From contig CBDBNN010000003.1 in assembly GCA_965207895.1 (NCBI GenBank), positions 451,755-515,754 of the forward strand: DNA of 64,000 nucleotides, in the 5' to 3' direction. The position numbers and the translations under genes were made by a program. Shown piece by piece: positions 7,319 through 53,330 of the stretch. The stretch is from Dehalococcoidia bacterium (GTDB lineage Bacteria > Chloroflexota > Dehalococcoidia > UBA6926). The stretch's first letter is position 1. Every line of letters starts with the position of its first letter. The notes under the pieces were generated by a model. The model was not told the DNA's origin. It saw only the letters and a list, made by a program, of their open reading frames with translations, and did no database searches.

Positions 7319-7335
7319 CGGGCCGCTCCCTTCCT

Positions 7336-8334
7336 CTAGTCGCCGCGACGCGCAGCCCTGCGCGTGCGCGAGGCCAACTCACGGGCCAACAGCAGCGCTC
7401 CGCGCAGGCCGTTGTCGTCCCCGAGTTCCGTCACTTCAAATCGGACAGTGCGGTTCTGCAGCTTGAACGCCCGCTCCCTGGCAACGCTGATTCCGTGTTT
7501 CACGTATTCATCCTGGCCGCGGGCAAGTCCGCCACCAAGCACAATCAACTCCGGGTTGAATATGTTGACGATGTTGGCAAGGCCGACGCCCAGAGCGTAG
7601 CCAGCCTCATCAACTACGGTGCGAGCAAGGTCATCATCCTGAGCTGCAGCGTCGAAGACATCGCGCGCCGTTATGCTTTCGCTGCCCTCTGCTGCCACCT
7701 TTTCAGCGAGAATCGAATCGCCGCCAGCCTCGATCCGCATGCGGGCCATACGCGCGACGGCCGTTCCGGAGGCCATCGCTTCGAAGCAGCCGGACGACAG
7801 CCCACACGGGCACTGGATGCCAGTGTTCATGCTGATTGTCATGTGTCCGAACTCGCCCGCTGCCCCGGCGATGCCGCGCAGCAGCTTGCCGCCGGAGATG
7901 ATGCCGCCGCCGATGCCTGTGCTGATGGTCAGGTAGATCATCTCTGTCGTGCCGCGCCCCGCGCCCATCTGGTGGACGGCGTGCGCAGCGGCAGTGGCGT
8001 CATTTTCGATCTCGATGGGGATGTTCAGTCGCTCCTTGAGCGCGTCTGCCATCGCGAACTCGCGCACCATCGGCAGGTTCGGCGATTCAACGATGACACC
8101 GCTTGCCGTGTCCACCGTGCCCGCGCAGGCCACGACTCCGGCGACTATTTCGCCGTTCGTCCTGGCGATAAGGTCATGGGCGGCCTCAACGATGCCGTCG
8201 ATGAGCAGTTTGGGGTCAGAGCGGGCGGGAGATGAGAACACAGTGCGCCGCATGGCTCCGCGTGGCCTGCGAGCGATTGCGACCCGTGTTTGGGTTCCCC
8301 CAATATCAACACCGAGCAGGTACGGGTTGGCCAT
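7336..8334 (-). CDS. ROK family sugar kinase/regulator (glucokinase-like)
   Basis: N-terminal LGVDIGGTQTRVA ATP-binding motif and CPCGLSSGCFE zinc motif typical of ROK proteins. Confidence 0.8.
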   Translation of the reverse strand: MANPYLLGVDIGGTQTRVAIARRPRGAMRRTVFSSPARSDPKLLIDGIVEAAHDLIARTNGEIVAGVVACAGTVDTASGVIVESPNLPMVREFAMADALKERLNIPIEIENDATAAAHAVHQMGAGRGTTEMIYLTISTGIGGGIISGGKLLRGIAGAAGEFGHMTISMNTGIQCPCGLSSGCFEAMASGTAVARMARMRIEAGGDSILAEKVAAEGSESITARDVFDAAAQDDDLARTVVDEAGYALGVGLANIVNIFNPELIVLGGGLARGQDEYVKHGISVARERAFKLQNRTVRFEVTELGDDNGLRGALLLARELASRTRRAARRGD

Positions 8335-15383: not shown

Positions 15384-16589
15384 TCACTCCTCCCGGTCGT
15401 TTCCCGAGAGTGCGCCTCGCAGCTCTATCGCCTGCCGCGTCCGGTCGAGTTCCGCGGCTAGGATCGTCTCCTCTGGCAGGGTGATGCGGTACTCCCCGGC
15501 CATGACGTTGTTGGGCAGGCCGTCGAGGGCGTACCGCGCCAACGCCTCGTCCTTCTCGGAGCAGAGGATGAGTCCCACGGGCGGGTTCTCGCCCTCTCGA
15601 ACCCAGTGCTCCCGCGCGTAGTTCAGGTAGAGGTGCATCTGTCCGGCGTCGGCGTGGGTGAACGCCCCGATCTTCAGGTCGATGACCACGAGACACCGCA
15701 GACCACGGTGGTAGAAGAGCAGGTCCACCCTGTACCACCTGTTGCCGATGCGCAGGCGCCTCTGCCTGCCCATGAAGCAGAAGTCGTCCCCCAGCTCCAT
15801 GAGAAAGGTCTCCAGGTGGCGGATGAGCGCGTCTTCAAGATCGCTCTCGGAGTACTCGTCCTTGAGGCCGAGGAACTCCAGGACGAAGGGGTCCTTGATC
15901 TGCTCCTGGGGCAGCACGGCGTCTTCGGCATTGGGCTTCCGTCCCGACGTGAGCATGGCAGCCTTGTTCTTGGACAGGGCGGTGCGCTCGTAGAACTGGG
16001 AGGCGATCTGTCGGTCTAGCTGACGGACCGACCACCCTCCCCTCAGCGCCTCCGTCTCGTAGAACTCGCGGGCCTGCTCGTCCCTGACCGACAGCAGCCT
16101 CACGTAGGCCGACCAGGGCAACGGGAAGGCTGACAGCAGGTCTTCGAAGCCTACGCCGTCCGATGCGGTCATGAATTCTCCCGACGCCGTCGAGAGAATC
16201 CTCTGTCGATGGGATGAAGCCGATTTTCCCGACACTGTCGGGAGAATCCGGTCAGACGGGAACGAGAGGTAGAAGAGACGCATCTTGTAGATGCCCTGGA
16301 GGGAGAAGCCCCGACCGAACCTTCCGGTCAGGTCCTCAGCCAGTCTCTCGATGAGCGCCGCCCCGTACTCGGCCCGCTCCTCTCCCGACTGCTCGAACTC
16401 GACGATGCGACGTCCTATCAGCCAGTACGCGGCGGTCATGGCGGCGTTCACCGACCGAGCGGCAGAGTCTCTGGCCGCGTCGATGATTCTCGACACGTCT
16501 CCGAAGACAGCCTCGTACGGGGCGTCGTGACTGAGGGTTGAACGCCTCAGTGATGGCTGATTGCGGTTGGGGGACATCTCGGATGGCAT
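15384..16589 (-). CDS. DUF1016 (YhcG/RhuM-like) PDDEXK-fold nuclease family protein
   Basis: C-terminal block RVDLLFYHRGLRCLVVIDLKIGAFTHADAGQMHLYLNY matches the restriction-endonuclease-like core of DUF1016 proteins (D...D/E-x-K arrangement: DLLFY ... IDLK). Confidence 0.75.
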   Translation of the reverse strand: MPSEMSPNRNQPSLRRSTLSHDAPYEAVFGDVSRIIDAARDSAARSVNAAMTAAYWLIGRRIVEFEQSGEERAEYGAALIERLAEDLTGRFGRGFSLQGIYKMRLFYLSFPSDRILPTVSGKSASSHRQRILSTASGEFMTASDGVGFEDLLSAFPLPWSAYVRLLSVRDEQAREFYETEALRGGWSVRQLDRQIASQFYERTALSKNKAAMLTSGRKPNAEDAVLPQEQIKDPFVLEFLGLKDEYSESDLEDALIRHLETFLMELGDDFCFMGRQRRLRIGNRWYRVDLLFYHRGLRCLVVIDLKIGAFTHADAGQMHLYLNYAREHWVREGENPPVGLILCSEKDEALARYALDGLPNNVMAGEYRITLPEETILAAELDRTRQAIELRGALSGNDREE

Positions 16590-16813
16590 CAGGCTTCCTC
16601 CTCCAAGTGGTTGTCCACTTGGACGTCCGGGAGCGCGTCCTTCTCGGACTCCGCTTGCCCGTCGCCGGCCGAGGGCCTGAGCAGCAGGGTGAAGAGACGG
16701 AGCAGCCGGTCCTCGGCGTCGGGTGCGGGCCTGGAGATGACCCTCACCTCCCCAAACTCCGAGAAGTCCTCTTCGGGCATCCGTCGCACTTTCGGTCTCC
16801 TCTTGTCGTTCAT
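16589..16813 (-). CDS. small ORF (73 aa, MNDKRRPKVRRMPEEDF...) translationally coupled to the DUF1016 nuclease
   Basis: Its TGA stop overlaps the ATG of the nuclease (TGATG). A diverged paralogous copy at about 18310-18095 lacks a stop, so that copy is decayed. Substitutions between the copies are enriched at third codon positions in this frame. Confidence 0.3.
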   Translation of the reverse strand: MNDKRRPKVRRMPEEDFSEFGEVRVISRPAPDAEDRLLRLFTLLLRPSAGDGQAESEKDALPDVQVDNHLEEEA

Positions 16814-17060
16814 CGTTCTCTTCGCCGGGCTCTCGTGAGCCCGCACCGGGCTGTCAATGTCGGCGGATCGCAGCCCTCGCCAGAGAGTGTGAACAACTCG
16901 AACGCCGAAAAAGACCTCACGCGTGGTGGCGCCACGGAAGGTCGCCAACGAACAAGCCTCTTCGCGCAGTATTGGGGGTGTACAGGAAATGGAGTTTGGT
17001 GACGAAGTGGCCTGAGTCGTGATTTCGTAGCTGAATCAGGGGCAAATCGCCCTCTACAGG
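16596..17060. repeat. copy A of a diverged ~450-bp duplication
   Basis: Aligns by eye to 18096-18560 at roughly 70-80% identity. Both copies end in gtga(t/g)ttcgtagctgaatcagg ... ctctacagg. Confidence 0.6.
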
Positions 17061-18095
17061 AGGTGGTCGGCGAGCAATCTGTTGAAAGGGTGGAGTTCGG
17101 TCGGCAATGACAAAAGCAGGCTTGAGGTGGGGGTGCATGACGCGGCCCAAATCGGCGGCCCGATGACAAAAGCGGCCAAAAGATGCGCTTGAGGTGGGGG
17201 TGCGTTACACCGGGCGAGACATCGCAAGAAACGCGGACCTGGTGGAAGGCAAAGCTGAAACGAGTTTGCGGGGAAGCAGGAAACTGCCATAGAGACGACC
17301 CAACACGGCCTCTAGGACAGCAAAGACCTGGAGCACATGTACCCCATGAGGCCCGGTCAGCTGGCACCACGCGGCGCTTTACGACACGCAGAGAGCGCGG
17401 GGCAGAAGCGAGGTTGCGTCCAGGGTGTGGCGGGCGCTCACGCAGAGGTGGTTGTGGCGGTAGTTGTGGAGCAATACGTTGCCCAAGGTCGCGCTGGAGC
17501 AATATCCGGGGTGGGGGCACGCATGGGGTCTTCTTGGTCTCGCAGATCGGTGATAATGACCTCACTGTTTGGCTTTCTCCAAGGTTTCCGACCACAGAAA
17601 CCTGGGTGCGTGATCCCTGTTGCACGGGCTTCGCCCAAGAGGGAATGCTGGCGATGCGGAGTTTGACGTTGGTCCTCCGCAACCAGCGCGGGCCGGATCG
17701 ACGGAGTTGACGCAGGGGCCTCCGTTTTCGGTCCAGTCCAGCGGGTTGGAGTTTGACGTTGGTCCTCCACTCGAAGGACATCTGCCTGACGTTCGGCGTT
17801 GATCGCTCCCTCCGTTGGGCACCGGTCTGACGGCTGGGGTTGATCGCCTCGCAGTCTGACCAGGGGGACGACGTGTTAGCGCATCGTCCCCGGCAAACTG
17901 GCCAAAGTGCGCCTGTCGCTTTGGCCAGTTCAGCACGTCTGCGGGATGGCTGGAACGCAGCCGCACCGCAGCTTCCGCACGCAGTTGATGGGGTGCGGTC
18001 CTGGCTGAGGGTTGACCGCCTCGCCGGAGACAGATGACGTTCGGATGCCAATGCTAAGTTGGAATTGACCCACCCCGATAGCGGGCGCATTGGGC

Positions 18096-18560
18096 TTCTG
18101 CCTCCAGGTGGTTGTCCACGAGTCGGTGATCCGAGGGCGGGTCCTTCTGGGACTTCCGCCTGCCTCTCCTCGTCCGTGGGCCTGAGCGGCAGGATGAAGA
18201 GGCGGCGCAGCCGGCCCTCGGCGTCGGGGGCAAGCCTGGAGATGACCCTGACCACGCCGCATTCGGAGAATCCCTCCTCGTGTATCCGTTGTCCGCTCCG
18301 TCTGCTCCTGTCGTTCATCACTCTCTTCACCGGGCTCGCGTGAGCCCCAAAAGGGCTATCAATGTCGGTCTGAATGCCATTGAGTCTGGGGAGCCGAGGG
18401 GCGAAAAAACACGGTCCGTGAGGGGGGCGCTCGCGGGATGCTCCCTCACGAGGTCTCCATCCCAAATGGCCGGATGTGATGTACTACCCGTGTACAAGGA
18501 AATGCGCCGGTTGCATAAATGCAAGTCGGTGGTGAGTTCGTAGCTGAATCAGGTTGGAGT
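18096..18560. repeat. copy B of the diverged ~450-bp duplication
   Basis: See copy A. Confidence 0.6.
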
Positions 18561-22274: not shown

Positions 22275-23003
22275 TCACAGGGGCAGCGACTCTCCGCTCT
22301 CCCGAAGATGCTGGCGACGCCGCTGCGCGTCCGGCATCACCGAAGCAATGAGTGTCCAGAACTCCGGTGAGTGGTCCCGGTGGGTCAGGTGCGCCAATTC
22401 GTGGACGACGACGTATTCCATCAGCGCCGGTTTCACCATCATGGCGCGCCAGTTGAAGCGCAGCGTCCCGTCGGGCGCGCAACTTCCCCAACGCTGACGC
22501 TGGTCGCGCACCAGCACACGAATCCTATCTCCATGTCCAAGCCGCGGCGTCCACCGTTCGACGACCTCTTCAAGTCTCTCTTGGGCGCGCGAGCGGTACC
22601 AGCGCACTACTGCTCGGCGGATCGACTCGTAGCGTTCATCGCCGCTCAGTCCCTTCGGGGCGGCGACCCGGAACCTCCAGTGATCGAAGCGGACTTCCGC
22701 CCTGCGCACGTCTGCGTCCTCCACAACCATGCGGACGTTGCGGCCCAGATAGGGTAGCGTCTCCCCGCTCACGAAGCGCTTGGGGGCGGTTTCCAGCATC
22801 CGGTCCGAGGCGTGACTCAGTATCCAGCCAGCCCGCTTCCGCACAATGGCGCGCAATTCGTTGACGGGCGTGGTCGTCGGCGCGACGACCTGCACCCCGC
22901 CGCCATCCACCGTGATCTGGACGGTCTTCCTGCGCCGACTGCTGCGTCGCACCTCGTAGTCGATGCTGGTATCGCCGAAGCGTACACGGCCCTCCTCGGT
23001 CAC
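22275..23003 (-). CDS. DUF45/YgjP-like zinc metallopeptidase (WLM/SprT-like)
   Basis: HELAHLTHRDHSPEFW zinc-binding motif. GTG start overlaps the hsdR stop (GTGA). This family is commonly linked to Type I R-M loci. Confidence 0.8.
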   Translation of the reverse strand: MTEEGRVRFGDTSIDYEVRRSSRRRKTVQITVDGGGVQVVAPTTTPVNELRAIVRKRAGWILSHASDRMLETAPKRFVSGETLPYLGRNVRMVVEDADVRRAEVRFDHWRFRVAAPKGLSGDERYESIRRAVVRWYRSRAQERLEEVVERWTPRLGHGDRIRVLVRDQRQRWGSCAPDGTLRFNWRAMMVKPALMEYVVVHELAHLTHRDHSPEFWTLIASVMPDAQRRRQHLRESGESLPL

Positions 23004-26000
23004 TGCCCGCTCCGGCGGCTGGCAAGCTCGACTATCCGGCTGGCCAACTCCTCCAGCTGGTCTTCGGTGTAGTCGCCCTTGGGTCTGAGTTCGCGCTTGA
23101 TGTCCCGGCGCATCAGCCGCCTGACATCCTCGTTCACATGCCAATCCACGACCCTGCTGCGCTGGGCGACGACCGACTCGATCCTCAGGGCAACGCTCCT
23201 GGCCTCCTCATCTATCTGAACGTGGTAAACGCCCTGCTCCTCTGCGATGTGCCGGGGAGGAACCTCTCCATTCTCCGGGCGTCTTTCCAGCAGCGCGTAG
23301 ATGGCGAAGGAGGTGGGTGAGAGACCGAACTCCGCCGCGATGTCGGCCTCGCTTCGCATCCGTCCCCGCACCTCAGCGTAGCGCCGGCACGCCTCGGCAG
23401 CGTCTATCACCCTGTTGCGCAGATCGTCGATGATGCGGGCCAGCTGTTCGGACAAGCGCTCGTAGAATGCGGGATTGTCTCCCAGACTCTCGTGGATCTG
23501 GGAGCGGATGGCGTGCTCCATGATGGACGCCCGCGCCTCGTCGTGGGGCAGGGCGGCGATCTTCTGGTCGAAGTCCCGGTCGAGGATGGACACCGGCCGC
23601 ATCATCTCCCGCACCTGGGCGCTGATGCGCTCGTCCACCAGCTTCTTCACCTTGGCCCCAATCTCCGTCCAGTCGATGTCGGCGTCCTCGCGAAGGAATT
23701 GGGCGCGCACGTAGGCGCGTATCTCCGTGAGCCGCGCCAGCCGGTCCGTGTAGTCCAGCGCGCGCGGGTCCGGCAGGAATCGGTCCATGAGACGGGAGAA
23801 ACCCCGGTAGTCGGCGTTGAACCGCTCGAATACGTGAGCCTTGAGGTTGCCCTCGGTGCTGGCGTCGGGCGCGAAGACGCTGACGCACGCCCAGGTGTCG
23901 CTCAGGTCCCGGCCCTTGAAGTGTGACTCGGCCTGGACGGCCGCGGCCTCGACGACCGACGCCGGGTCCTCGTCCATCTCCTGCATCGTGCCCTGCACAT
24001 CCGACCAGTCGAATGTTGAAAGAACGTCTTCGAGGTCCCGAGATACGCCGTGGTAGTCCACGACCAAGCCGTGGGTCTTTTCGGTCTCCGCCCCGTCCTT
24101 TCTATGCGAGAACCGGCGGTTGACCCTCGCAACGGCCTGAAGCAGCCCGTGCTCCCGCAGCGCTCTATCCAGGTAGAGCACCTGCTCCACGGGCGCGTCG
24201 AACCCGGTCAGCAGCATGTCCACCACGACCAGCACCTCCGGCTCGCCCTCCGGATCGACGAAGGCGCTTTCGACCTGTCCCTGGTCGAGTTCGCGCGCCG
24301 CCTTGAACTCCGGCCCGTCGTTTGGGGCTGTGGTGATGATGGGATAGGCGCTGAGGCCGAAATCCTTCAGTCGGCTGGCGTACCGGAGGGCGGCTACCCG
24401 GCTGGGCGCAACCACCTGGGCCTTGAACCCGTTGGGGCGAATCTTCGCCTTGAAATGCTCGGCGATGTCTAGGGCGATCATCTCGATGCGTCGCTCCGCC
24501 TCAGCCACCGTCTCTTTGTTGGCGTAGCGTCGGCGAATCTGCGCTTGGACAGCGGGCGGCTCGTCGCCGAACATGGCATCGTAGAGCTTGTCCAGGGTCT
24601 CCGGCCCCTCGATGGCAAGCTCGGGCAGGCGCGCCTCGTAGAAGATGGGCACCGTCGCGCCGTCGGCCACCGACTGGGGGATGGTGTAGGTGTCGATGAG
24701 CGAGCCAAAGCGCCCTATGGTGTTGCGCTTGAAGCCCTTCTCTATGGGCGTTCCGGTGAACCCGATGAGCGCCGCGTTGGGCAGCGCTTTGGAGAGCCGT
24801 CCCCCGAGGATGCCGTACTGCGTGCGGTGCGCCTCGTCCACCATGACGATGACGTTCTCCGAGGCGTTGAGCACGTCAAGCTCGCCCTCGGGGGTCGTCA
24901 GCGCCTCCTCGAACTTCTGGATGGTCGTCATGATCGTGCGGCCCGCGCCCGTGGTGAGCAGACGACGCAGGTCCCGGCTGGTCGCCGCCCGCTCCGGCGC
25001 AGGGAAGCCGCAACGCTCGAAGGTGCCGGTGATCTGCCGGTCCAGTTGCGTGCGGTCGGTCACCACGACAATCGTGGGATTGCCCAGACGAGGCTCCCGA
25101 CGCAGCCTCGTCGCCAACCACAGCATGGTCAGGGACTTGCCCGAACCCTGCGTGTGCCAGACCACGCCGCCCCGTTCCTCCGGCTTCAGGCCGGTGAGCA
25201 ATCGCTCCAACCCAGCGCGAACCGTGCGGTACTGCTGGTAGCGTGGCAGCTTCTTAACCACACGTCCCCGCTCCGGCTCATAGACCACATAGTCGCGGAG
25301 GATGTCCAGCAGGGTTGCGGGAGGCAGCAGGCCGACGATGAGCTGGGCCTGCCCCTGGGGTTCGACCCCGTACCTCTGCCTCACGTCGTCCTCGGAATGG
25401 CTCCCAAGCCATTTCCACTCGAAGTAGGCGTTCTCCGGCGCGCCGATGGAGGCGTACGCGGCAGCGGCCCCGCAGTGTGCGACGCACAGCAGGTTGTAAT
25501 GGAAGAGCTCGGGAGCGCCGCTCCCGCGCCACTCCGGCCCTGCCTCCTGGTAACGTCGCAACTGCCGCACCGCGTTGGTCTTCCACACGTCCAACAAGGA
25601 AGGCGACTTCGCCTCCATCACCACTAGGGGGATGCCGTTGACGAACAGCACGATGTCGGGAATGACCATGCGTTCGTCGTCCTCGGCGCCGCCTCTCTCG
25701 TTGGCGCGGCGGACGCGGAACTGGGTGGTGACGACGTACTCGTTGAGTCCGCCTTCAGGATGGTCGAAGTCGAAGAAACGAACGATCCGCGAATCCCTGC
25801 CCTGCGGCCCGTCAACGGTCAAGGGCTTGCCATAGGTCAGATACTCGTGGACCGCCTGGTTGCGGCCCATGCCGGTGGCGTCGATGTGCTCAAGGTCGAA
25901 GATGACCCGCCCGGCCTGGGCCTCGGTCATCCATTCGTTCAGACGAAGCAGGGCCGCTCTCAGGCGCCCCTTCAAGAGCACCTCCCGCTCGTCGCCTCGC

Positions 26001-26131
26001 TCCGCCGCCAGCGCCTCGCGCGGCACGTAGGTCCAACCCAGCTTCTCCAGCAAGCGCCTCGCTGGGTCCTCGGCGTGGTTGAATTCGTTGAGCTTGGAGG
26101 GTGTGGTCATAGGACTCCTAGCTACCCTCAT
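23000..26131 (-). CDS. hsdR: Type I restriction enzyme R subunit
   Basis: N-terminal nuclease motif (PDIVLFVNGIPLVVMEAK), SF2 helicase motifs (WHTQGSGKSLTM; VIVMVDEAHRTQ) and a long C-terminal domain. The start may be the internal MTTPSKL (about 26110). Confidence 0.95.
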   Translation of the reverse strand: MRVARSPMTTPSKLNEFNHAEDPARRLLEKLGWTYVPREALAAERGDEREVLLKGRLRAALLRLNEWMTEAQAGRVIFDLEHIDATGMGRNQAVHEYLTYGKPLTVDGPQGRDSRIVRFFDFDHPEGGLNEYVVTTQFRVRRANERGGAEDDERMVIPDIVLFVNGIPLVVMEAKSPSLLDVWKTNAVRQLRRYQEAGPEWRGSGAPELFHYNLLCVAHCGAAAAYASIGAPENAYFEWKWLGSHSEDDVRQRYGVEPQGQAQLIVGLLPPATLLDILRDYVVYEPERGRVVKKLPRYQQYRTVRAGLERLLTGLKPEERGGVVWHTQGSGKSLTMLWLATRLRREPRLGNPTIVVVTDRTQLDRQITGTFERCGFPAPERAATSRDLRRLLTTGAGRTIMTTIQKFEEALTTPEGELDVLNASENVIVMVDEAHRTQYGILGGRLSKALPNAALIGFTGTPIEKGFKRNTIGRFGSLIDTYTIPQSVADGATVPIFYEARLPELAIEGPETLDKLYDAMFGDEPPAVQAQIRRRYANKETVAEAERRIEMIALDIAEHFKAKIRPNGFKAQVVAPSRVAALRYASRLKDFGLSAYPIITTAPNDGPEFKAARELDQGQVESAFVDPEGEPEVLVVVDMLLTGFDAPVEQVLYLDRALREHGLLQAVARVNRRFSHRKDGAETEKTHGLVVDYHGVSRDLEDVLSTFDWSDVQGTMQEMDEDPASVVEAAAVQAESHFKGRDLSDTWACVSVFAPDASTEGNLKAHVFERFNADYRGFSRLMDRFLPDPRALDYTDRLARLTEIRAYVRAQFLREDADIDWTEIGAKVKKLVDERISAQVREMMRPVSILDRDFDQKIAALPHDEARASIMEHAIRSQIHESLGDNPAFYERLSEQLARIIDDLRNRVIDAAEACRRYAEVRGRMRSEADIAAEFGLSPTSFAIYALLERRPENGEVPPRHIAEEQGVYHVQIDEEARSVALRIESVVAQRSRVVDWHVNEDVRRLMRRDIKRELRPKGDYTEDQLEELASRIVELASRRSGQ

Positions 26132-27086
26132 CGAAAGTAGTTGAACTCCAATGACTGGCTACCCTAAGCACGTAATCGGCACAGATTATGGCATTCAGGG
26201 CTTGCCTGCTTGTATTGTATGCAGCAAAACCGTGACTAGCCGCATGGCGATTCGGTGTCGGACTGTGCCTGATTTCTTCCAGGTTCTCGCTCTCCACCCG
26301 AGCGTAGAGTTCGTGCATGATGTATTTGATGACGACCCACTCGTGGCGACCATCCCAGATCAAATTTCTAAACGGTGTATGACCTACTCGCTCCTGGATT
26401 TCTCCGTACTGCCCGCTCTTCGTTCCTTCGATACCGAGCAAGTCCTCACGAATCACTTTCTCGATTAGAGGCAATACTCCGTAACAGGCTGAGCGAAAAT
26501 AACCTAGCCTATAGACCTCCAACGCTTCACGGACCGCGCTCTTGTCTTCGTCATCTACTGAGTAATCCGATAAGCGCGTGGATATGTCTTCAACTATCTC
26601 GCTTGTACATTCACTGTAATACCGGTCTACGAGGTCGCTGAACGTGCTCTCGTCGTAACTTGAGTCGTCCAAGAACTGTGCAAACGGAACAGTTCTATAT
26701 GGGAGCCATCCGGTGGTTGTGCTTGCCTCTTCCATTCGTTGTTCAAATGCAAATGGATTGGGAAGCTTCAGCACGTCCAACGAGGGGAGCCAGGTGTTTG
26801 GCTGCAAGGTAATCTGGGTTATCTCTGATATGGCCCCCAATTGTTGTGTCAACAGGTGAGCCATAAGGGAAGTCATGCGACTCTGGTCAAGGATCGACTG
26901 TAGACCGCTCGTCATGTGTGCCAACGAGCTTTGCCATCTACCCAATTGCCCTTCCATGATACTGGCCTGAATCTTGAAGGAGTCATCCCACAGCTTGCTG
27001 AATGACGCTGTTATCTGATTCATATCGCTCATCACGTGACGCAGGTCCTCATGGGAGGTACCGCGAACATCATCTTCAGTGCTCAT
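26118..27086 (-). CDS. hypothetical protein on an AT-richer segment inside the R-M operon; possible HEPN-like (R-x4-H) protein
   Basis: Clean 322-codon ORF with 14-nt and 4-nt overlaps with neighbours. C-terminal NRHAASHG fits the Rx4-6H HEPN signature. Composition is clearly AT-richer than hsdS/hsdR. Confidence 0.6.
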   Translation of the reverse strand: MSTEDDVRGTSHEDLRHVMSDMNQITASFSKLWDDSFKIQASIMEGQLGRWQSSLAHMTSGLQSILDQSRMTSLMAHLLTQQLGAISEITQITLQPNTWLPSLDVLKLPNPFAFEQRMEEASTTTGWLPYRTVPFAQFLDDSSYDESTFSDLVDRYYSECTSEIVEDISTRLSDYSVDDEDKSAVREALEVYRLGYFRSACYGVLPLIEKVIREDLLGIEGTKSGQYGEIQERVGHTPFRNLIWDGRHEWVVIKYIMHELYARVESENLEEIRHSPTPNRHAASHGFAAYNTSRQALNAIICADYVLRVASHWSSTTFDEGS

Positions 27087-28351
27087 AGCTGCTTTGCCGC
27101 CGTCCTTCCATGCATACGAACGCGACCCGTCAGCAGCGCCTCTGACGCCGATCCCTTCAGTGCTTGCAGCCTTTCCCGCTCCTCGTGCCCCTGCTCAATG
27201 GCCGAGTCTACGCCAGTCAGCACTGAGGCGATGGTCTGCTGCTCTCGCAACGCCGGAAGTGGAATCGAAAGAGAGTTTGTAGCACCCAGCGTCAGGCCAA
27301 AGCGAGTGACTCCATTGGCGATGCGAGCAAACCGGCTTGCCGTCCGTGGAGACCCTAGTAGCTCAGCCAGATACGCGCCATCGGCTAGCTCCATGCGCGG
27401 TCGTGCCAATCCCAGGTGATAGCCACACAGGACTGTTGGCATATCCGCAGTCACATAGGCGGGAATCCCGATTTCATCTGGCGTTTCCGAGTCCTTCGTG
27501 AAGAGAACGTCGTTCTTCCGCAACGCCCATCGGTCACACTCAACCGGGCTAGCGGTCGCAGCCATAAAGCGCATTCCAGGTCGGATTCGGCGACTGTAGA
27601 AGACATCCGTGTAGTTGCAGAGTTCAACCGGAACCTCGCCGTCCACGGTTCTCTTATCGACGCTACTGAAAGCTACCTCCGTCACATCCCCCAGCCGTAC
27701 CACCTCCCAGTTCGCCGGTATCGTCCCGATGCCCGGCGCTTCCTTCCACTCTGTGTGCCAGCCGGGGACACCGCGGGTGAGGAGTTCGTGTAGTAGAGAG
27801 TCGCGCAGTTGCTCGGTGGCGGCGATGGCTGCATCCGTCCTCTCGATTGCTTCATCGATGCCGTCCAGCACGGCGGCGATGGCCCGCTGTTCGGGTAGTG
27901 GGGGGAGTAGGATGGGGAGATTGCGCAAGTGTGTCCAGGATGTTCTTGGCATCTTGGTCCCACCGACTCCACGCATCGCGTATTCATAGGTCTGGTCGCC
28001 ACGAAGCAAGTGACTGAGAAAGGAACTGTCTGCCTCGCTGCCACCGAATATGGCGAGGATGTCGGTCGAGCAAACGCCGTCAAACTGTGCTCGAATCACT
28101 TTTCTCAGGTTTGGACGAAGCTTCCCGTAAAGCGTGTCACCCTCTCGGAAGAGAGTCTTGTTGCTGATCGACTCTCCCGCTCTTCCGTACCCGTTCAAAG
28201 CCCCCTCAGCAATGATGTGTTCAAGGGCAATGTAAGGCCGGTGATCGTGTTTCGTGGGTTTGACTTGCTCCATGCGGAGATTCGCCACATCCCCCAACTG
28301 CACTACCTGCCAGCCGTCGGGTATCGTCCCATTGTCTCCTGAACGTCCCAT
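27083..28351 (-). CDS. hsdS: Type I restriction specificity subunit (two TRDs)
   Basis: Two target-recognition domains each followed by the conserved L-x-x-L-P-x-L-x-E-Q-x-x-I block (LPPLPEQRAIAAVL; LPALREQQTIASVL). Confidence 0.9.
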   Translation of the reverse strand: MGRSGDNGTIPDGWQVVQLGDVANLRMEQVKPTKHDHRPYIALEHIIAEGALNGYGRAGESISNKTLFREGDTLYGKLRPNLRKVIRAQFDGVCSTDILAIFGGSEADSSFLSHLLRGDQTYEYAMRGVGGTKMPRTSWTHLRNLPILLPPLPEQRAIAAVLDGIDEAIERTDAAIAATEQLRDSLLHELLTRGVPGWHTEWKEAPGIGTIPANWEVVRLGDVTEVAFSSVDKRTVDGEVPVELCNYTDVFYSRRIRPGMRFMAATASPVECDRWALRKNDVLFTKDSETPDEIGIPAYVTADMPTVLCGYHLGLARPRMELADGAYLAELLGSPRTASRFARIANGVTRFGLTLGATNSLSIPLPALREQQTIASVLTGVDSAIEQGHEERERLQALKGSASEALLTGRVRMHGRTAAKQL

Positions 28352-28359
28352 CGGTCTCT

Positions 28360-28710
28360 TCAGTTACCTTCGTCCGTGGGCGGGCGTATCTCGTGGATGG
28401 TCACCGGAAGTCCTGCCCGCTTAGCTTCCAGCCAGCGTTTGAAGGAACGCTGGCTTTCTCCGGAGGGCCATCCTCCCAACAGCATTTCCACGCTGATGTC
28501 CTCATCCAGGGCAGGCCAGTGGATGCCCTCGCCAGCGCCTATCAGCCGCCAGTTGTGGCGTTCCTCAGGCGTGGCGTGGATGAGCCTGGGATACCAGGAC
28601 AGTGGCACCGACACGGTCCGCCCGTCGGAGAGCTCTGCGGTCAGGGTATCGTCGGTCACCTCGACCGTCATGGCCTCCGGCACACTCACCTTAAGCGTTG
28701 AAACGTTCAT
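28360..28710 (-). CDS. DUF2442 family protein
   Basis: Size and sequence pattern of DUF2442. Overlaps the DUF4160 gene by 20 nt, the usual pairing. Confidence 0.65.
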   Translation of the reverse strand: MNVSTLKVSVPEAMTVEVTDDTLTAELSDGRTVSVPLSWYPRLIHATPEERHNWRLIGAGEGIHWPALDEDISVEMLLGGWPSGESQRSFKRWLEAKRAGLPVTIHEIRPPTDEGN

Positions 28711-28927
28711 TCCAAGCCTCCAGAAACGAATTCTGATTTTCCTCGACTATCTTCTCGATGCGGCGTATCTCATGCCGCCTCAATCCGCCTGTCTGTTGAA
28801 GCCTGACCGGCTCCAGCCAAAACTTGGCGATGCGGTCATCGCGTTCGACGTGAATGTGGGGAGGCTCTCCCCGGTCGCTCGCGTAGAAGAAGAACCGGTA
28901 CGGCCCCTCCCTCAGTATGACCGGCAT
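28691..28927 (-). CDS. DUF4160 family protein
   Basis: MPVILREGPYRFFFYASDRGEPPHIHVE is the hallmark N-terminus of DUF4160. Confidence 0.7.
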   Translation of the reverse strand: MPVILREGPYRFFFYASDRGEPPHIHVERDDRIAKFWLEPVRLQQTGGLRRHEIRRIEKIVEENQNSFLEAWNERFNA

Positions 28928-28942
28928 GGTCCACCAAGCCTC

Positions 28943-30469
28943 CTATCTGGCATAGCCCATCTCCGCCAGAAGTTCGTCCATCCTGGCCACCGCCTCATCC
29001 CGCCGCTGCTCCGCCTCTCTCAGTTGAGCCAGCGCCTCCTCTACCGGCATCACCTCAACCGGTTCCGTGGTGTCCACGTAGCGGCTGATGTTCAGGTTGA
29101 AGTCGTTGCCCTGTATCTCCTCAAGCTCTGCGACGTGGGCGAATCGCTTCACGTCCTCGAAGTCCCTGTACGCCTCAACGATCCTGCTTATGTGCTCCGG
29201 GTCGATGAAGTTTTGAGCCTTGCCGGGACGGAAGTAACCCTCTTGGGCCGCGTCCACGAACAGCACCTTCCCCCGCCTCTCCACAGGCTTGGCCTTGTTC
29301 AGCACGCAGATGGCGACGGGGATGCTGGCCCCGAAGAAGAGATTTGGGGTTAGGCCGATCACCGCCTCGAACAGGTCGGCCTCAACGATGCCCCGCCGTA
29401 TCCTTCCCTCCGCTCCGCCACGGAACAGGATTCCGTGGGGCATGACCACGCCCACCATGCCCTGGGAGTTGGTCACTCCCAGCATGTGCAGCAGGAAGGC
29501 GAGGTCGCCCCTGGTTCTGGGCGGCGTTGCACCGTAGCGGTCAAAGCGGTGGTGCGGGTCGTTGGGAGCGAAGTCATGCCCCCAGTTTTTGAGGCTGAAG
29601 GGAGGATTGGCGATAACCCGGTCGTAGGACAGTAGCCGTCCTGACTGGTCCACAAGACCCGGCTCCGCTATCACGTCACCAGCCTCCAATCGACCGGCGC
29701 GGAGCCCGTGAAGGAGCAGGTTGAGCTTGCCGATTGCCAGAGTACCGAGGTTCCGCTCTTGGCCATGCAGCGCGAGGTTCCGGTAGTCTCCGCCCTGTTC
29801 CCGCACGTACTGCGCCGCATAGATGAGCATCCCCCCGGAACCGGCTGTCGGATCGCAGATGCGCATCCCTTCTCGGGGTTGGAGTAACTCGATGATGAGC
29901 CGCACCACCGAGCGGGGCGTGTAGAACTCGCCGCCCTTCTTGCCGGCGTCGTCGGCGAACCGGTTGATCAGGTACTCGTAAGCGTCTCCCAGCACGTCAC
30001 CGCCCCCTGCCGCGTCCCTGCGCAGGTTCTCGTCGCTCAGGTCCAAGTCGCCAAAGTGGTTCAATAGGCTGCGGATGATGCGCTCCCGGTTGGCCGGACT
30101 GCCCAGCTTCGACTCGTCGTTCCAGTTGTTCGGAGCCAGTACGCCTTCCAGCCTGGGGTTGGCCTCTTCAATCGCATGGCTGGCCACGTTGAGCGCCTCT
30201 CCCAAGCCCATGGTGGCTCCCAGGAGAGTGGTCCATCGGGCGGATTCAGGGACGAAGAACTCGTGCTCGTCCTGGTCGGTGAGCGCAACCTCACGGGCAA
30301 CGCCCGACTCCACCGCGCCCTCAACCTCCTCGTCGAAGCGGTCGGAGAGCCGCTTGAGGAAGAGGATGGAGAAGATGTAATTCTTGTAGTCGGCGGCGTC
30401 GATCTGCCCGCGCAGAATGTCGGCGGCCTGCCACAGCTTGGACTCAAGCTCCTGTTTAGTGAGTGGCAA
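28943..30469 (-). CDS. hsdM: Type I R-M N6-adenine DNA methyltransferase subunit
   Basis: N-terminal HsdM_N block (LWQAADILRG ... YKNYIFSILFLKRLSD), AdoMet motif and NPPF catalytic motif. Confidence 0.95.
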   Translation of the reverse strand: MPLTKQELESKLWQAADILRGQIDAADYKNYIFSILFLKRLSDRFDEEVEGAVESGVAREVALTDQDEHEFFVPESARWTTLLGATMGLGEALNVASHAIEEANPRLEGVLAPNNWNDESKLGSPANRERIIRSLLNHFGDLDLSDENLRRDAAGGGDVLGDAYEYLINRFADDAGKKGGEFYTPRSVVRLIIELLQPREGMRICDPTAGSGGMLIYAAQYVREQGGDYRNLALHGQERNLGTLAIGKLNLLLHGLRAGRLEAGDVIAEPGLVDQSGRLLSYDRVIANPPFSLKNWGHDFAPNDPHHRFDRYGATPPRTRGDLAFLLHMLGVTNSQGMVGVVMPHGILFRGGAEGRIRRGIVEADLFEAVIGLTPNLFFGASIPVAICVLNKAKPVERRGKVLFVDAAQEGYFRPGKAQNFIDPEHISRIVEAYRDFEDVKRFAHVAELEEIQGNDFNLNISRYVDTTEPVEVMPVEEALAQLREAEQRRDEAVARMDELLAEMGYAR

Positions 30470-31088
30470 CTAGCGCCTCTCCCATTGATGTGTATACGGC
30501 CCTGCGGCCGATGTCATGGATTACGGAGTCCCTAAGTGTCTCGCGTCGCAGGCGGGCGACCTCGACCGCCGCAACGTAGGCATCCTCGGACACCTCCACG
30601 AGTCTGGCCACTGCATCAAGCTCTCCGTCGGACAGTAATGGAATCTCGATCTCTCCCAAGCTACGTGCGGATAGAGTCGTCACCGTGGCGTTGACCACCA
30701 GCCGCTTGGCGAGTTGCGCTCGGCCCTGGGAGGAAGTGAGGAAATACCAGAGCCAGTGTCCCAAGCCGGATTCGGGTCGCTTGGGCCGCACCACCAGCAA
30801 GGTTACACCTGCAACCGTACGCGACACGCCGGGTGGCACAAGCGCGGTCTGAAGCGACCCTGCGCGGGCCGTCACCAGTATGTCGAAGGGTCTCAGCAGG
30901 TGGCGCTCGGTGCGCAGGGTGCGCACGACTCCCACTTCCCGAAGACCGTGTGATTCCAGCCAACCGTCGTCACGCAGGTCGCCGCTCTCGACGATGCGGA
31001 GCATCCAGTCGCCGCGTTGCGATCCGGCCCCGCGTCCAGCTTGGGCGAGGCCCTGGTGTACATGGGCGAGGTCTGCAACACATGCCAT
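30456..31088 (-). CDS. HsdS-like protein with a single target-recognition domain (half-S)
   Basis: FDILVTARAGSL ... VVRPK ... WLWYFLTS ... IEIPLLSDGELDAVARLVE follows the TRD plus conserved-linker pattern of HsdS. It is only about 210 aa and overlaps the hsdM start. Confidence 0.5.
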   Translation of the reverse strand: MACVADLAHVHQGLAQAGRGAGSQRGDWMLRIVESGDLRDDGWLESHGLREVGVVRTLRTERHLLRPFDILVTARAGSLQTALVPPGVSRTVAGVTLLVVRPKRPESGLGHWLWYFLTSSQGRAQLAKRLVVNATVTTLSARSLGEIEIPLLSDGELDAVARLVEVSEDAYVAAVEVARLRRETLRDSVIHDIGRRAVYTSMGEALVATH

Positions 31089-31890: not shown

Positions 31891-32012
31891 GATTATCTCC
31901 CCACGCTTGTCACATCTATTTTAACTGGTCCGCGCGTGCCCACCTAGTCTACGTGTCTGTAGGATCGGTATCGGCGAGGAATGTAGGTAACGTCACGGCA
32001 ATTGTGGAGCAG

Positions 32013-32291
32013 TTACTTGAGCTTTATGTGCTGAATCAATTCTAGGAATTTTGTGGCATCCTTTTCCCGCTCACTAAGGGTAGTCGTATGGATATAGAGA
32101 TCCGGCGAACGCTCAAGAAACCTCTCCATGAGCCGTCGCTTCTCGCTTTCGACTCGATTCAACTGAGAGGGTTCATATACTAGCAACAGGTCGATGTCGT
32201 TTGGGGAGTCGACGCGAAGGCCTGAACCAAACAAATATGCTTCACTGAAACAGTCGCTGATCAGCGAAGCGATAAAAGAGTAGTCTTGCAC
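32013..32291 (-). CDS. minimal nucleotidyltransferase (MNT, Pol-beta superfamily)
   Basis: hG[GS] and DxD signature LFGSGLRVDSPNDIDLLLVY. AT-rich segment. Confidence 0.75.
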   Translation of the reverse strand: MQDYSFIASLISDCFSEAYLFGSGLRVDSPNDIDLLLVYEPSQLNRVESEKRRLMERFLERSPDLYIHTTTLSEREKDATKFLELIQHIKLK

Positions 32292-32298
32292 CGTTCAT

Positions 32299-33474
32299 CT
32301 ACTTCAGATTGTTATGGGCATAGGCGAAAAACGCAGTTTGATTCGCGAGCCAAACGCCAATCGACTCAGCAAAGTCTTGAGCATCCGCACTTACTGGGCC
32401 GCCATTCCAGTTATGTAGATTTATCACGATGTCACCTTTGTCCAAGGTCATTCCGTGGAGATCAGAGAGAGAAAGTACGTATTTGTAGCACAGGATTACC
32501 GTAACCTTGTCCGCTATAAGCAATTTGGTCAGCTGAGGGAAGTCCGGGAAGCTGTAGCGAATCTGATTCCTTTCCAGCCAATTCGCGAAGAAGACGAGAT
32601 CACTTAGGCGTACATCTGTCGTATGTGCCCTATAATGATGACCATTCCAAAAGATTTGCTGCAGCCTTGGGCGGTCTTCCAAGCTCATTTCAACTACCTC
32701 CCCGTCTTGGAGGTATGCGACGCTTGGGTGGTCTCTAAAGTTCAACGTAACGAGGTTGTCATTAGCAGAGATGACCGACAAAAAGTTCTGGAAAGCTGAC
32801 AGGCTAGGGGGATAGCCGCGCCTCTGAGGTTTAATGCCGAAAAGGGATAATAGACCATCCGGGAAAAATAATATGCGCTCCATAGGCTGGTCTGCTCTCG
32901 TGTGGAGAAACTCATGGGAATGGGCAACGAACTGCTCGACCACGTTTTTGTTCTCGCGGTGCAGGAGGTGTTTGTTCTTAGTCAATAAGAGCTCTAGACG
33001 TTGGTTGTTGCTAACCAGTGCGTTTTCAAATTGACGCCACAGTTTCCCGCTGATGGCTTCTTGGTTTTCGCTATGGGGACCGTAGTCATCAAAAATCTGT
33101 TCATTTCGTTGCAAGAGAGGGACTACGGCACGCTCTAAATCTGCAAAAGAGTTGAATCTCTTTGCAAAGAGGGCATCTAGAGATTTCTTTCTGGAGGCTT
33201 TCCATTGCTGGAGCATCAAGATTGTAGTAGAGGTCCTGTCACTATCTGTAGTTCTGTGGCAGTTGGGGCAGAGGAGGAGTAGGTTATTGGGCTCTATAGA
33301 GCCTCCCCCTGCATGCGGTTCAATGTGAGCAATGTCGGCAATACTCTGCCCATCAACTATGAGTTCGGATTGACAGCTCGGATTCATGCATAGGCCTGCC
33401 GATTCGGACCAAAGTAGTCGCTGGGTGGTAAGTGGGACTGGGGGTCTAGTCATCACAGATACCCAGCGAATCAT
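32299..33474 (-). CDS. HNH endonuclease-domain protein with an uncharacterised ~280-aa C-terminal domain
   Basis: N-terminal C-x4-C ... IAHIEPHAGGGSIEPNNLLLLCPNCH HNH motif. AT-rich. 7-bp gap to the downstream MNT gene, so an operon. Confidence 0.75.
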   Translation of the reverse strand: MIRWVSVMTRPPVPLTTQRLLWSESAGLCMNPSCQSELIVDGQSIADIAHIEPHAGGGSIEPNNLLLLCPNCHRTTDSDRTSTTILMLQQWKASRKKSLDALFAKRFNSFADLERAVVPLLQRNEQIFDDYGPHSENQEAISGKLWRQFENALVSNNQRLELLLTKNKHLLHRENKNVVEQFVAHSHEFLHTRADQPMERILFFPDGLLSLFGIKPQRRGYPPSLSAFQNFLSVISANDNLVTLNFRDHPSVAYLQDGEVVEMSLEDRPRLQQIFWNGHHYRAHTTDVRLSDLVFFANWLERNQIRYSFPDFPQLTKLLIADKVTVILCYKYVLSLSDLHGMTLDKGDIVINLHNWNGGPVSADAQDFAESIGVWLANQTAFFAYAHNNLK

Positions 33475-34547: not shown

Positions 34548-35255
34548 TTGGAGGGAGAGATGGCAACAGCGACGCGGGAGCAGGTACCGCGGGAAGCATT
34601 TCGGGGTATGTATTTGGCCCCGAATGCTTCGTTGTACATCCGAGCAACTTTCCCCCCAGAAACTCACTTAAGCCTACCTTCAACCAAGCTACTTAGGTGG
34701 ATACGAACTGGTGTAGCTGGCGATTCGTACCAAGGCATCCCGGGTAAGGACATCTTGATTGACTTCGAAGACCTGATTTCAATGCGAGTCATTTCTGCGC
34801 TGCGGGGTGCCGGTGTGACCTGGCCCAAGATTTGGGAAGGAGAGAACTGGCTAAAGGAGAATACGACTGCTAGGAAACCTTTCGCCACGATGCACATTTG
34901 GAGCGGTTCGGGTGACATCTTTACGGAGTGGTCTAGGAGGCTGATTGCTGCTAGTCGGCATGGCCAACTTGCGTTCGACATATTGCGCGATTTCATAATT
35001 CCAGTTCATGGCCTGGGTTTCGATGAGCACAGCAAAGTAGCTAGATGGTGGGAGCCGTCTTCGGAAGTAAGACTCCATCCAGAAATCCAGTTTGGTGCGC
35101 CATGCATAGCGGGGACACGAATTCCCACACAGGCGGTTGTAGGAGCCGTAAACGCTGGGGATCCCAAAGAGCTTGTGCAAAAGGCCTACGAGATTACTGC
35201 GGAACAACTGGAGGCCGCACTTGTCTGGGAATCGCGACTCCGTTCTGCAGCCTAA
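34548..35255 (+). CDS. DUF433 domain protein with N-terminal extension
   Basis: C-terminal PEIQFGAPCIAGTRIPTQAVVGAVNAGDPKELVQKAYEITAEQLEAAL matches DUF433. AT-rich islet. Confidence 0.65.
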   Translation: MEGEMATATREQVPREAFRGMYLAPNASLYIRATFPPETHLSLPSTKLLRWIRTGVAGDSYQGIPGKDILIDFEDLISMRVISALRGAGVTWPKIWEGENWLKENTTARKPFATMHIWSGSGDIFTEWSRRLIAASRHGQLAFDILRDFIIPVHGLGFDEHSKVARWWEPSSEVRLHPEIQFGAPCIAGTRIPTQAVVGAVNAGDPKELVQKAYEITAEQLEAALVWESRLRSAA

Positions 35256-35649
35256 CCCTCGGTACGCTTTAGATGAATCTTTGTCGCGGCCTGTCGCTCA
35301 GGCCTTGGCTAGTGTAGGTATTCCGATCTTCTCAGTAATTGACATTCTTGGGAAAGAGGGCGCAACCGACAAAGAGATCTTAACGTGGTGCCTAAACGAA
35401 GATGGAATCTGGATACATGCGGATGACATTCGACATAGGAGATTGTTGCGCGAAGGTTCAGCTGGTGCCAAGACAGTTTGGGTGTTTAGGCCTGATGGCA
35501 AACTAGGTGTAGCTGAGCAACTCCGCATACTCGCTGTAGTGCTACCACGCCTCGAAGATAGGATTGAATCTAACCCTTCGACACTTCACTACATAGCGAG
35601 CGCTGTTAATTCGCTCGCGACTCCCAAGCTAACGGCAATTAGGGGTTGA
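35173..35649 (+). CDS. DUF5615 (PIN-like, Mut7-C-type) protein, partner of DUF433
   Basis: LDESLSRPVAQALASVGIPIFSVIDILG matches the DUF5615 N-terminus. Start is uncertain (no clean ATG; possibly TTG near 35219). Overlaps the upstream gene as DUF433/DUF5615 pairs usually do. Confidence 0.5.
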   Translation: MCKRPTRLLRNNWRPHLSGNRDSVLQPNPRYALDESLSRPVAQALASVGIPIFSVIDILGKEGATDKEILTWCLNEDGIWIHADDIRHRRLLREGSAGAKTVWVFRPDGKLGVAEQLRILAVVLPRLEDRIESNPSTLHYIASAVNSLATPKLTAIRG

Positions 35650-36107: not shown

Positions 36108-36184
36108 TGGCGCGCCCGGCAGGATTCGAACCCGCGACCCTCGGTTCCGAAGACCGATGCTCTACTCCACTGAGCTACGGGCGC
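36108..36184 (-). tRNA. tRNA-Arg (TCG)
   Basis: Cloverleaf by eye: acceptor GCGCCCG/CGGGCGC, D arm GCTCAGTGGAGTAGAGC, anticodon stem TCGGT/ACCGA with loop CTTCGGA, T arm GCGGG-TTCGAAT-CCTGC, discriminator G and encoded CCA. Confidence 0.8.
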
Positions 36185-40052: not shown

Positions 40053-40194
40053 GGGAACTTAAAGTATGCCACCTAAGGGAATTCGGAGCGAAACGAGAAA
40101 CCTATAGAGGGTGTGACTGTTTGAGAGCCGGAACGCGGCACACAACCTATTCCAAGGTCAAAGCCTGACCGCGAACCTTGGCTGTCGGCACTGC

Positions 40195-51882: not shown

Positions 51883-51995
51883 GCTGTTACCCCCATTGGA
51901 CTGCCTCGAGCCGGAACGCGGCGGCCAAACGACTTGTATATTCGGCGCCTGAGCGCGAACTTCAAAAAACGCCGCACCTGAATCATACCGCGAAA

Positions 51996-53114: not shown

Positions 53115-53194
53115 GCCAGCATTCTACCCAGCTGTTGTCATTCTGAGCGCAGCGAAGAATCTAGAGACTCAATCTGCAAGCAACGCCGGAACGC

Positions 53195-53330
53195 GGCAGA
53201 CCTACGTATGTGGCCGTCCAATCTGGTTTGCGAACCGGGGAAAAAGCCGCCGACGCCGGAACGCGGCGGACTAACGAAAAGGACTGTCCAATCCGGATCG
53301 CGAACCGAGAAAACAATTAGCTGAAATTAG
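53195..53330. repeat. two imperfect tandem ~60-bp repeats in the dinB-MFS intergenic region
   Basis: gccggaacgcggcagacctacgtatgtggccgtccaatctggtttgcgaaccgggg and gccggaacgcggcggactaacgaaaaggactgtccaatccggatcgcgaaccgag. Confidence 0.5.

Follow-up and report, generated by a model that had tools for sequence, protein, structure and literature searches.

Why would a gene for an HNH nuclease be followed directly by a gene for a minimal nucleotidyltransferase (MNT), a type of protein that, to our knowledge, is known as an antitoxin almost only in partnership with HEPN RNases? This question is raised by a locus in a 64,000-nucleotide stretch of the genome of a Dehalococcoidia bacterium (Chloroflexota; assembly GCA_965207895.1, contig CBDBNN010000003.1, positions 451,755 to 515,754), referred to here as the window. 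An earlier reading of the letters of this DNA (the original prediction) had described the two genes as an uncharacterised toxin-antitoxin (TA) or anti-phage pair. The 391-aa and 92-aa open reading frames (ORFs), and the 7-nt gap that separates them, exist as it described and lie on the minus strand (Table 1). Also confirmed was that the pair is richer in AT than its flanks, as GC content is 0.47-0.49 over positions 32000-33400 versus 0.58-0.64 on either side, and the bin at 32-33 kb (0.48 versus ~0.60) has the lowest GC content among all 64 one-kilobase bins of the window. Our analyses suggest that the larger protein, hereafter the effector, is a DNase and that the MNT is its regulator, in a module that occurs in one-, two- and three-gene forms.

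The pairing of the two genes was found to be obligate. In a census based on hidden Markov models, an intact MNT gene was located directly downstream of the effector gene, and on the same strand, in the window and in all 32 evaluable two-gene loci elsewhere. The loci were gathered from exact-protein look-ups (6), contigs of a collection with one genome per species (24), IMG/VR (1 contig) and a Clostridium butyricum megaplasmid (1). The sole locus outside this census is one that is cut off by a contig end. The two-gene family spans at least eight phyla, at 30-59% identity, and its hosts include Nitrospirales, Opitutales, Ca. Foliamicus, Dehalococcoidia, Longimicrobiales, Ca. Multivorans, Latescibacterota, and many Firmicutes. 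No third conserved gene was revealed in the two-gene loci by all-against-all clustering of their neighbours. The spacer of the window is replaced in most homologous loci by an overlap of the effector and MNT genes, which ranges from 4 nt to ~40 nt.

A word-indexed protein search returned 14 effector homologues, and a profile search of a library of 50%-identity representatives returned 104 at E<1e-30 and 411 at E<1e-10. These ~400 representatives, one per 50%-identity cluster, derive from Nitrospirota, Verrucomicrobiota, Proteobacteria, Chloroflexota, Gemmatimonadota, Firmicutes, and other phyla, and they include culturable carriers among Pseudomonas, Halomonas, Janthinobacterium, and Clostridium strains. 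Many of the proteins found in the profile search were relatives of only ~225-240 aa that match just the HNH and helical domains of the effector. Such proteins are encoded by the first gene of a three-gene operon, in which they are followed by a middle gene (~125 or ~214 aa) and then by an MNT gene. A metagenome scan for the three-gene form gave at least 452 places confirmed by tblastn, of which 80 were kept and 71 were evaluable, and the MNT closes the operon in 68 of these 71. When aligned by hhalign with the last ~100 residues of the window effector (~286-391), the middle-gene families had probabilities of 95.7% (E 8.7e-9) and 94.1%, and the window effector thus corresponds to the first two genes, joined into one, of a three-gene system that is more widespread.

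Fusion has gone further in a one-gene family whose members, 460-480 aa in length, combine the HNH, helical, alpha/beta, and MNT modules in one chain. This family has ~28 clusters that align with full-length coverage at 34-39% identity, and its members include proteins of Pseudomonas viridiflava, Halomonas halodenitrificans, and Janthinobacterium lividum. One short contig supplied the only instance of a 490-aa fusion in which a window-type effector is joined to its MNT (P0033). Comparison by hhalign connects the alpha/beta modules across all architectures, with probabilities of 94-99.7%. Adjacency in the two-gene loci, closure of most three-gene operons, and fusion in ~28 clusters bear out the idea that the MNT is a constant neighbour, and the three modules evidently function as one unit. 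In P. viridiflava GCA_900587505.1, the fused gene (L118:6001-7410) stands alone, with gaps of ~250 bp or more on both sides, and the island in which it lies also carries an MvaT/H-NS-like gene, a ProQ-domain gene, and a gene for a 988-aa SMC_N/AAA_21 ATPase.

The HNH motif that had been noticed at the N-terminus of the effector was upheld, as residues 41-75 match Pfam PF01844 above its cut-off (E 7e-6, 26.5 bits, cut-off 21.4). The motif residues C29-x4-C34, H50, N64, and C69-x2-C72-H73 are invariant in all 39 full-length homologues, and based on this conservation the HNH nuclease looks active. An AlphaFold2 (AF2) model of the effector, built with the family alignment, had a predicted local distance difference test (pLDDT) score of 85.5 and a predicted template modelling (pTM) score of 0.80, and consisted of three parts. 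Only the HNH part had matches in a Foldseek search of the PDB, over ~85-114 columns, and these were to McrA (6ghc), Cap5 (8fmh/9dih), ScoMcrA, and IscB. Matches to PADLOC profiles were similarly confined to the HNH part, namely those to the 'Effector Endonuclease'/SAVED_HNH profiles of cyclic-oligonucleotide-based antiphage signalling systems (CBASS), to PDC-M68A, and to the N-terminus of SduA. The HNH domain is, by these matches, of the Cap5/Shedu-N-terminal/PDC-M68A type.

The remainder of the effector differs from what had been expected in one respect. The original prediction had set aside ~280 residues that it could not assign, and residues ~82-391 indeed have no match in Pfam, NCBIfam, PADLOC, or PDB sequence profiles. 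They form, however, not one domain but two, one of which is encoded by a separate gene in relatives. The first is a four-helix domain, with helices at 82-103, 110-131, 139-166, and 173-191 in the AF2 model. This domain, and not the nuclease, is the best-conserved region of the effector; ten of its residues (P119, N124, Y131, W146, N156, N157, N167, H185, R193, and R200) do not vary among the 39 homologues, and it is common to the ~230-aa gene-1 proteins of the three-gene relatives. No Pfam match to it recurred among 24 members at E <= 10, and a profile search of the PDB with it was empty. The second is an alpha/beta domain. Residues 200-391 modelled alone with higher confidence (pLDDT 92.5, pTM 0.86), and that model had no real match in Foldseek-PDB (best E 0.055, probability 0.25, TM 0.24). 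No known housekeeping fold was encountered in Pfam, NCBIfam, PADLOC, PDB profiles, or Foldseek-PDB, and the helical and alpha/beta domains would appear to be two undescribed domains without a family or a solved structural analogue. A diverged SAVED domain at the C-terminus had been suspected from the lengths of the PADLOC profiles, and was rejected as Cap5 aligns over the HNH part only and the C-terminal model is matchless.

Identification of the 92-aa protein as an MNT depended on its family. The window MNT alone is below the Pfam threshold (Polbeta, E 0.0057, 17.2 bits versus a cut-off of 26.9 bits), and a homologue search with this single sequence returned only the query itself. The family was gathered instead from the genes downstream of effector homologues. 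Polbeta (PF18765) was matched by 20 of 21 members, with a best value of 6.5e-11, and PF01909 (NTP_transf_2) by 14 of 21. In the PDB, the family profile matched the solved MNTs 2rff (1.5e-5) and 1ylq (0.004) and, weakly, MntA (5yep). The assignment made in the original prediction is solid at the level of the family.

The active site of the MNT is carried by the motif F21-G22-S23-x8-D32-x-D34 together with E76, and none of these six residues varies in the 90 non-redundant MNTs of the two- and three-gene systems. Such invariance in proteins with overall identities of ~30-40% indicates a nucleotidyltransferase that probably works. Position 68, which aligns with the third metal ligand of solved MNTs (D71 in MntA), is Asp in 60 of the 90 proteins and His in 27, and the invariant E76 nearby might substitute for the third carboxylate. 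The window MNT, with H68 (codon 32088-32090), is one of the 27 that bear His. Its first helix is also ~6 residues shorter than those of its close homologues (N-terminus ~32250-32291). At 92-106 aa, the MNTs are without a substrate-binding domain of their own; the helical domain of a partner is the classical supplier of substrate binding for an MNT (PMC3710099).

When loci were inspected for decay, an asymmetry was observed: the effector gene was disrupted beside an intact MNT gene in three loci, and a disrupted MNT was found in none. Two of the three (L013 and L027) have frameshifted effector genes. In the third (L023, from Ca. Multivorans), a ~785-bp insertion at 6781-7566 splits the effector between profile positions 69 and 66 and the MNT is intact. 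An asymmetry in this direction is expected if loss of the MNT is lethal.

The surroundings of the pair in other genomes vary. It is inserted within a type I restriction-modification (RM) operon in L003 and is near hsdM or hsdR in L007, L008, and L013. Other neighbours include AAA_15/21 with DUF4276, a reverse transcriptase, AbiJ, MmeI-type RM, DUF4238, McrBC, PDC-S01, SoFic, and type II RM, and mobile-element genes are represented by recombinases, resolvases, and integrases. These contexts are described qualitatively, as the Pfam and PADLOC scans of 124 neighbouring proteins yielded aggregated counts. A context that is variable, and often associated with defence genes or the mobilome, fits a conflict system. 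One homologue was found on plasmids, that of the C. butyricum megaplasmid, where the RefSeq names of the pair are generic ('HNH endonuclease signature motif containing protein' and 'nucleotidyltransferase domain-containing protein'). Judged by its sequence and distribution, the pair is a horizontally acquired or mobile cassette. Its adjacency, fusions, patchy phyla, and low GC content are those of a conserved, compact, mobile operon of an effector and a regulator, as would be expected of a TA or abortive-infection system.

We hypothesize that the pair represents a type-VII-like TA or abortive-infection module, in which the MNT nucleotidylylates the effector and thereby keeps a DNase off. This is the reading that we favour, although as one drawn by analogy we would give it slightly less than an even chance. 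It is supported by the obligate pairing, the fusion and fission of the genes, the intact active sites, the conservation of Y332 (below), the decay asymmetry, the defence and mobile context, and the low GC content. In this scheme, the effector would comprise a Cap5-type HNH DNase head followed by the helical and alpha/beta domains, and the MNT would be a catalytically active regulator in complex with it. The precedent is MntA, which oligoAMPylates a conserved Tyr of HepT next to the active site of that toxin via a GSX10DXD motif (PMC7641770), and fused MNT-HEPN proteins self-AMPylate in cis (PMC13000451). Like MntA acting on HepT, the MNT would attach nucleoside monophosphate units to the effector and so most likely switch the nuclease off. 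The best candidate for the acceptor is Tyr332, which lies just after a beta-strand of the alpha/beta module, because a Tyr aligns with it in all four architectures. Tyr131, at the end of helix 2 before a disordered loop, would be second; this Tyr does not vary among two-gene effectors or among those gene-1 proteins of the three-gene relatives that were aligned. Without its modification, whether removed or no longer maintained, the HNH protein would be free to cleave DNA and so halt the cell or the invader. Release might be caused by phage-induced shut-off, by loss of the MNT, by a drop in nucleoside triphosphates, or by a phage enzyme. We infer in this way the toxicity of the effector, the direction of regulation, the nucleotidylylation of a protein and its acceptor residue, the trigger, the neutralisation, and a part in phage defence.

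Several points weigh against the type-VII-like module. The toxicity and the modification on which it rests are both things that we infer. The helical domain has no Rx4-6H(xY) motif and no HEPN Pfam match and, lacking a HEPN-like signature, would therefore be analogous to HepT in function and not by homology. The order of the genes, effector first and MNT last, is the reverse of that of a typical mntA-hepT locus. Y131 is replaced by Cys in some one-gene fused members (e.g., P0178 of P. viridiflava), which makes the acceptor uncertain, and the conserved Tyr may be purely structural. A TA system in a single polypeptide would require an extra release mechanism. In the window MNT, His in place of the third metal-binding Asp possibly means an altered chemistry. 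The decay asymmetry amounts to three cases, two of which are frameshifts in metagenome-assembled genomes and possible sequencing errors. Many of the neighbourhoods also contain ordinary metabolic or housekeeping genes.

Some of the same features can be accommodated if the MNT acts through a small molecule. With the helical domain as its substrate-binding partner, the MNT could make a free or protein-primed nucleotide or oligonucleotide that is bound by the helical and alpha/beta domains, and this ligand could either hold the HNH domain off, in a guard-type arrangement like that of Hailong HalB/HalA and Clover CloB/CloA, or switch it on, as CBASS CD-NTase does for Cap5. The effector shares an HNH subfamily with Cap5, a ligand-activated CBASS effector whose size and layout (an N-terminal HNH domain and ~300 further residues) it mimics, and its most conserved polar residues (N124, W146, N156, N157, N167, H185, R193, and R200) are in the helical domain, as would be the case for a ligand pocket. 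There are also recently described two-gene systems in which a nucleotidyltransferase (NTase) is a negative regulator and toxicity follows from its inactivation (PMC13434031), and the decay asymmetry fits a negative regulator of this type equally well. Under the CBASS-like version, in contrast, an NTase could be lost without harm, but a broken MNT beside an intact effector was seen in no locus. The C-terminal domains are neither SAVED nor CARF, given the extent of the Cap5 alignment and the matchless model noted above. The MNTs are far below the known signal synthases in size, and their nearest solved relatives are minimal NTases and, weakly, MntA. A synthase and a receptor covalently fused in one chain would, moreover, be unusual for a system with a diffusible signal. 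On balance, we regard a nucleotide signal as possible but doubtful. A more specific form of it, in which the MNT completed by the four-helix domain would be the smallest known immune signal synthase, and its product would be read by a new sensor fold that gates a Cap5-type HNH domain and is unrelated to SAVED or CARF, is in our view unlikely.

Pol-beta family enzymes frequently act on the 3' ends of nucleic acids, and HNH nucleases include homing and restriction enzymes, so the two proteins could alternatively have no role in immunity or TA and instead process DNA or RNA, with the nuclease making cuts and the NTase tailing or marking the ends, in repair, in a restriction-like process, or in a selfish homing cassette. 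That the N-terminal matches of the effector include McrA-type type IV restriction enzymes, that several loci are within or beside RM operons, and that some neighbourhoods are plainly housekeeping are in accord with such a role. The effector has no recognisable domain for DNA recognition or for reading modifications, however, and a patchy spread over at least eight phyla, a GC content below that of the host, and neighbours that include defence genes and recombinases are typical of conflict systems and not of repair. A phage homing nuclease, in particular, is argued against by the phage genome collection, which yielded no homologue, and by IMG/VR, which yielded a single one. Characterised MNTs of this size act together with a partner helical domain, and their targets are proteins or small molecules (PMC7641770, PMC3710099). 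We consider a processing pair quite improbable. Still more improbable is a classical type II system, in which the MNT would be a non-catalytic binder that sequesters the HNH toxin. The strict adjacency and tight translational coupling or overlap of the genes would suit it, and the His for the third Asp and the shortened N-terminal helix of the window MNT are readable as catalytic decay. Against it, the invariance of the six active-site residues in 90 of 90 MNTs that are otherwise only ~30-40% identical is unexpected for a purely structural antitoxin, and the fused single-chain form could not release a labile antitoxin without extra steps. The obligate pairing, the unmatched folds, and the conflict-type context lend support to the original prediction of an uncharacterised TA or anti-phage pair.

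The extents of the genes and their domains, and of the genes around them, are listed in Table 1. The true start of the effector is probably M8, at 33453, because homologues begin at its equivalent. In the public annotation, the window effector (P0001, 362 aa, 'MNPSC...') starts at M30 (codon 33385-33387) and the invariant zinc ligand C29 is therefore lost from the annotated protein. Consensus scans identified no promoter or terminator at the operon, with overall counts not above those of shuffled controls.

Table 1. Positions in the window of the effector and MNT genes, the domains of the effector, and features in their vicinity.
Feature	Position	Strand	Remarks
391-aa effector gene (HNH + four-helix + alpha/beta)	32299..33474	-	Stop codon 32299-32301; from ORF list and DNA
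HNH (His-Me finger) domain, residues 1-81	33232..33474	-	CX4C...CX2C zinc site; catalytic H50, N64, H73
Four-helix domain, residues 82-204	32863..33231	-	Predicted secondary structure; no family assignment
Alpha/beta domain, residues 205-391	32302..32862	-	AF2 model; contains Y332
Spacer, 7 nt, effector stop to MNT GTG start	32292..32298	-	
92-aa MNT gene, GTG start	32013..32291	-	Pol-beta superfamily
PADLOC candidate PDC-S30, 238 aa	31174-31890	-	E 7.8e-48; directly downstream of MNT
Half-size type I S subunit	30456-31088	-	
hsdM	28943-30469	-	
hsdS	27083-28351	-	
322-aa ORF between hsdS and hsdR, local GC dip 0.52	26118-27086	-	No Pfam or PADLOC match
hsdR	23000-26131	-	
YgjP-like peptidase	22275-23144	-	
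Overlapping DUF433 (235 aa) and DUF5615/PIN-like (158 aa) genes, TA-like pair	34548-35649	+	
tRNA-Arg(TCG)	36108-36184		

On the downstream side, the original prediction had placed an ecsC gene next to the pair. No Pfam EcsC match was obtained there at E <= 0.1, and the gene, which is not kept beside the pair in other loci, instead matches the candidate defence family PDC-S30. Beyond it, the type I RM operon of the window is complete (22275-31088, including the extra half-size S subunit). On the other side of the pair, the upstream neighbour that had been called moeB is a ThiF/MoeB-family gene by Pfam, and the DUF433 and DUF5615/PIN-like pair lies between it and the tRNA-Arg gene. No CD-NTase was found in the neighbourhood of the window locus. 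The original prediction had put the pair just outside a presumed integrative element. Direct or inverted repeats that flank the pair and would mark an insertion were not found in the window, nor was an att-like repeat of tRNA-Arg(TCG) present anywhere in it.

Elsewhere in the window, a gene for a YhcG-type PDDEXK nuclease (DUF1016_N + YhcG_C), a type frequent in mobile and defence settings, is located at 15384-16589 on the minus strand. A 214-nt direct repeat with 79% identity (16650-16863 and 18155-18368) brackets most of a 551-aa ORF (16810-18465) that has no family match, and further short repeats lie at 17016/18529 and 17658/17748. A dispersed short repeat of up to ~61 nt, which starts with GCCGGAACGCGG, was observed at 2404-2464, 40127-40149, 51910-51932, 53183-53243, and 53253-53313. 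This repeat is in tandem at 53.2 kb and resembles an intergenic element of the repetitive extragenic palindromic (REP) type.

The novelty of the module was considered from both the literature and the collections of defence systems. No published description of an HNH and MNT system was found in the full-text literature, in which subscription journals are thinly covered, and the label 'PDC-M68' has no occurrence in the searchable literature. PADLOC 2.0 has no model for the helical domain, the alpha/beta domain, or the middle gene of the three-gene form. The best PADLOC match of the effector is PDC-M68A (5e-13), and the MNT weakly matches PDC-M63A (7e-5) and PDC-S09. Membership of PDC-M68 was considered and rejected, since the match spans positions 1-137 of a 253-position profile, that is, the HNH part only, and the same is the case in the three-gene relatives.

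The module, then, ties a tiny MNT to an HNH effector that cuts DNA, both through the adjacency of their genes and, in relatives, through fusion. If the proposed mechanism is true, the enzymatic neutralisation of type VII systems would not be confined to RNase toxins but would reach DNase toxins as well, and there would be one more candidate defence system, for which PADLOC 2.0 has no entry. If a nucleotide signal is made instead, the module would represent a nucleotide-signalling or guard pathway in one-, two-, and three-gene forms across many phyla. Unless the latter is right, the general logic of the module would not surprise specialists. The one-gene form offers a simple testable construct, with two active sites that can be point-mutated and one or two candidate Tyr residues.

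Among known systems, HepT/MntA (type VII, including the fused FhepTA) is the one to which the module seems most like in its way of working. In both, an MNT of ~100 aa with a GS...DxD motif is strictly paired with an effector that cleaves nucleic acid, the effector has a conserved helical domain and a conserved Tyr, and there are separate-gene and fused forms; the nearest solved relatives of the MNT are also of that class. The module is nevertheless not a member of the HepT/MntA family, because it has no HEPN domain or Rx4-6H motif and its gene order is reversed. The effector here is an HNH DNase and not a HEPN RNase, the spacing in the MNT is GS-x8-DxD versus GSX10DXD, the effector gene comes first, and there is an extra alpha/beta module, which is a separate gene in the three-gene relatives. 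AMPylation is proposed here from analogy.

CBASS Cap5 shares with the effector its HNH subfamily, as PADLOC profiles match to 2e-9 in the window (residues 9-95) and to ~1e-24 in the three-gene relatives, and Foldseek aligns ~106-114 N-terminal columns with a root-mean-square deviation of 3.5. The two are also alike in length (~380-390 aa) and in having an NTase partner of the Pol-beta superfamily. They differ in that the C-terminus of the effector is not SAVED and in that a 92-aa MNT takes the place of a CD-NTase of ~300-400 aa, and no evidence implies cyclic-nucleotide chemistry. Hailong (HalA/HalB) and Clover (CloA/CloB) are likewise two-gene defence systems in which an NTase restrains a toxic effector, an arrangement that is compatible with the decay asymmetry (PMC13434031). 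Their effectors, however, are an ion channel and a dNTPase rather than an HNH nuclease, and their regulation is via a bound nucleotide or oligodeoxyadenylate. In sequence, the relationship seen is that of a shared superfamily. Overall, these comparisons suggest that the locus encodes an MNT-regulated, nucleic-acid-cleaving conflict module, the new parts of which would be its DNase effector and two undescribed domains.

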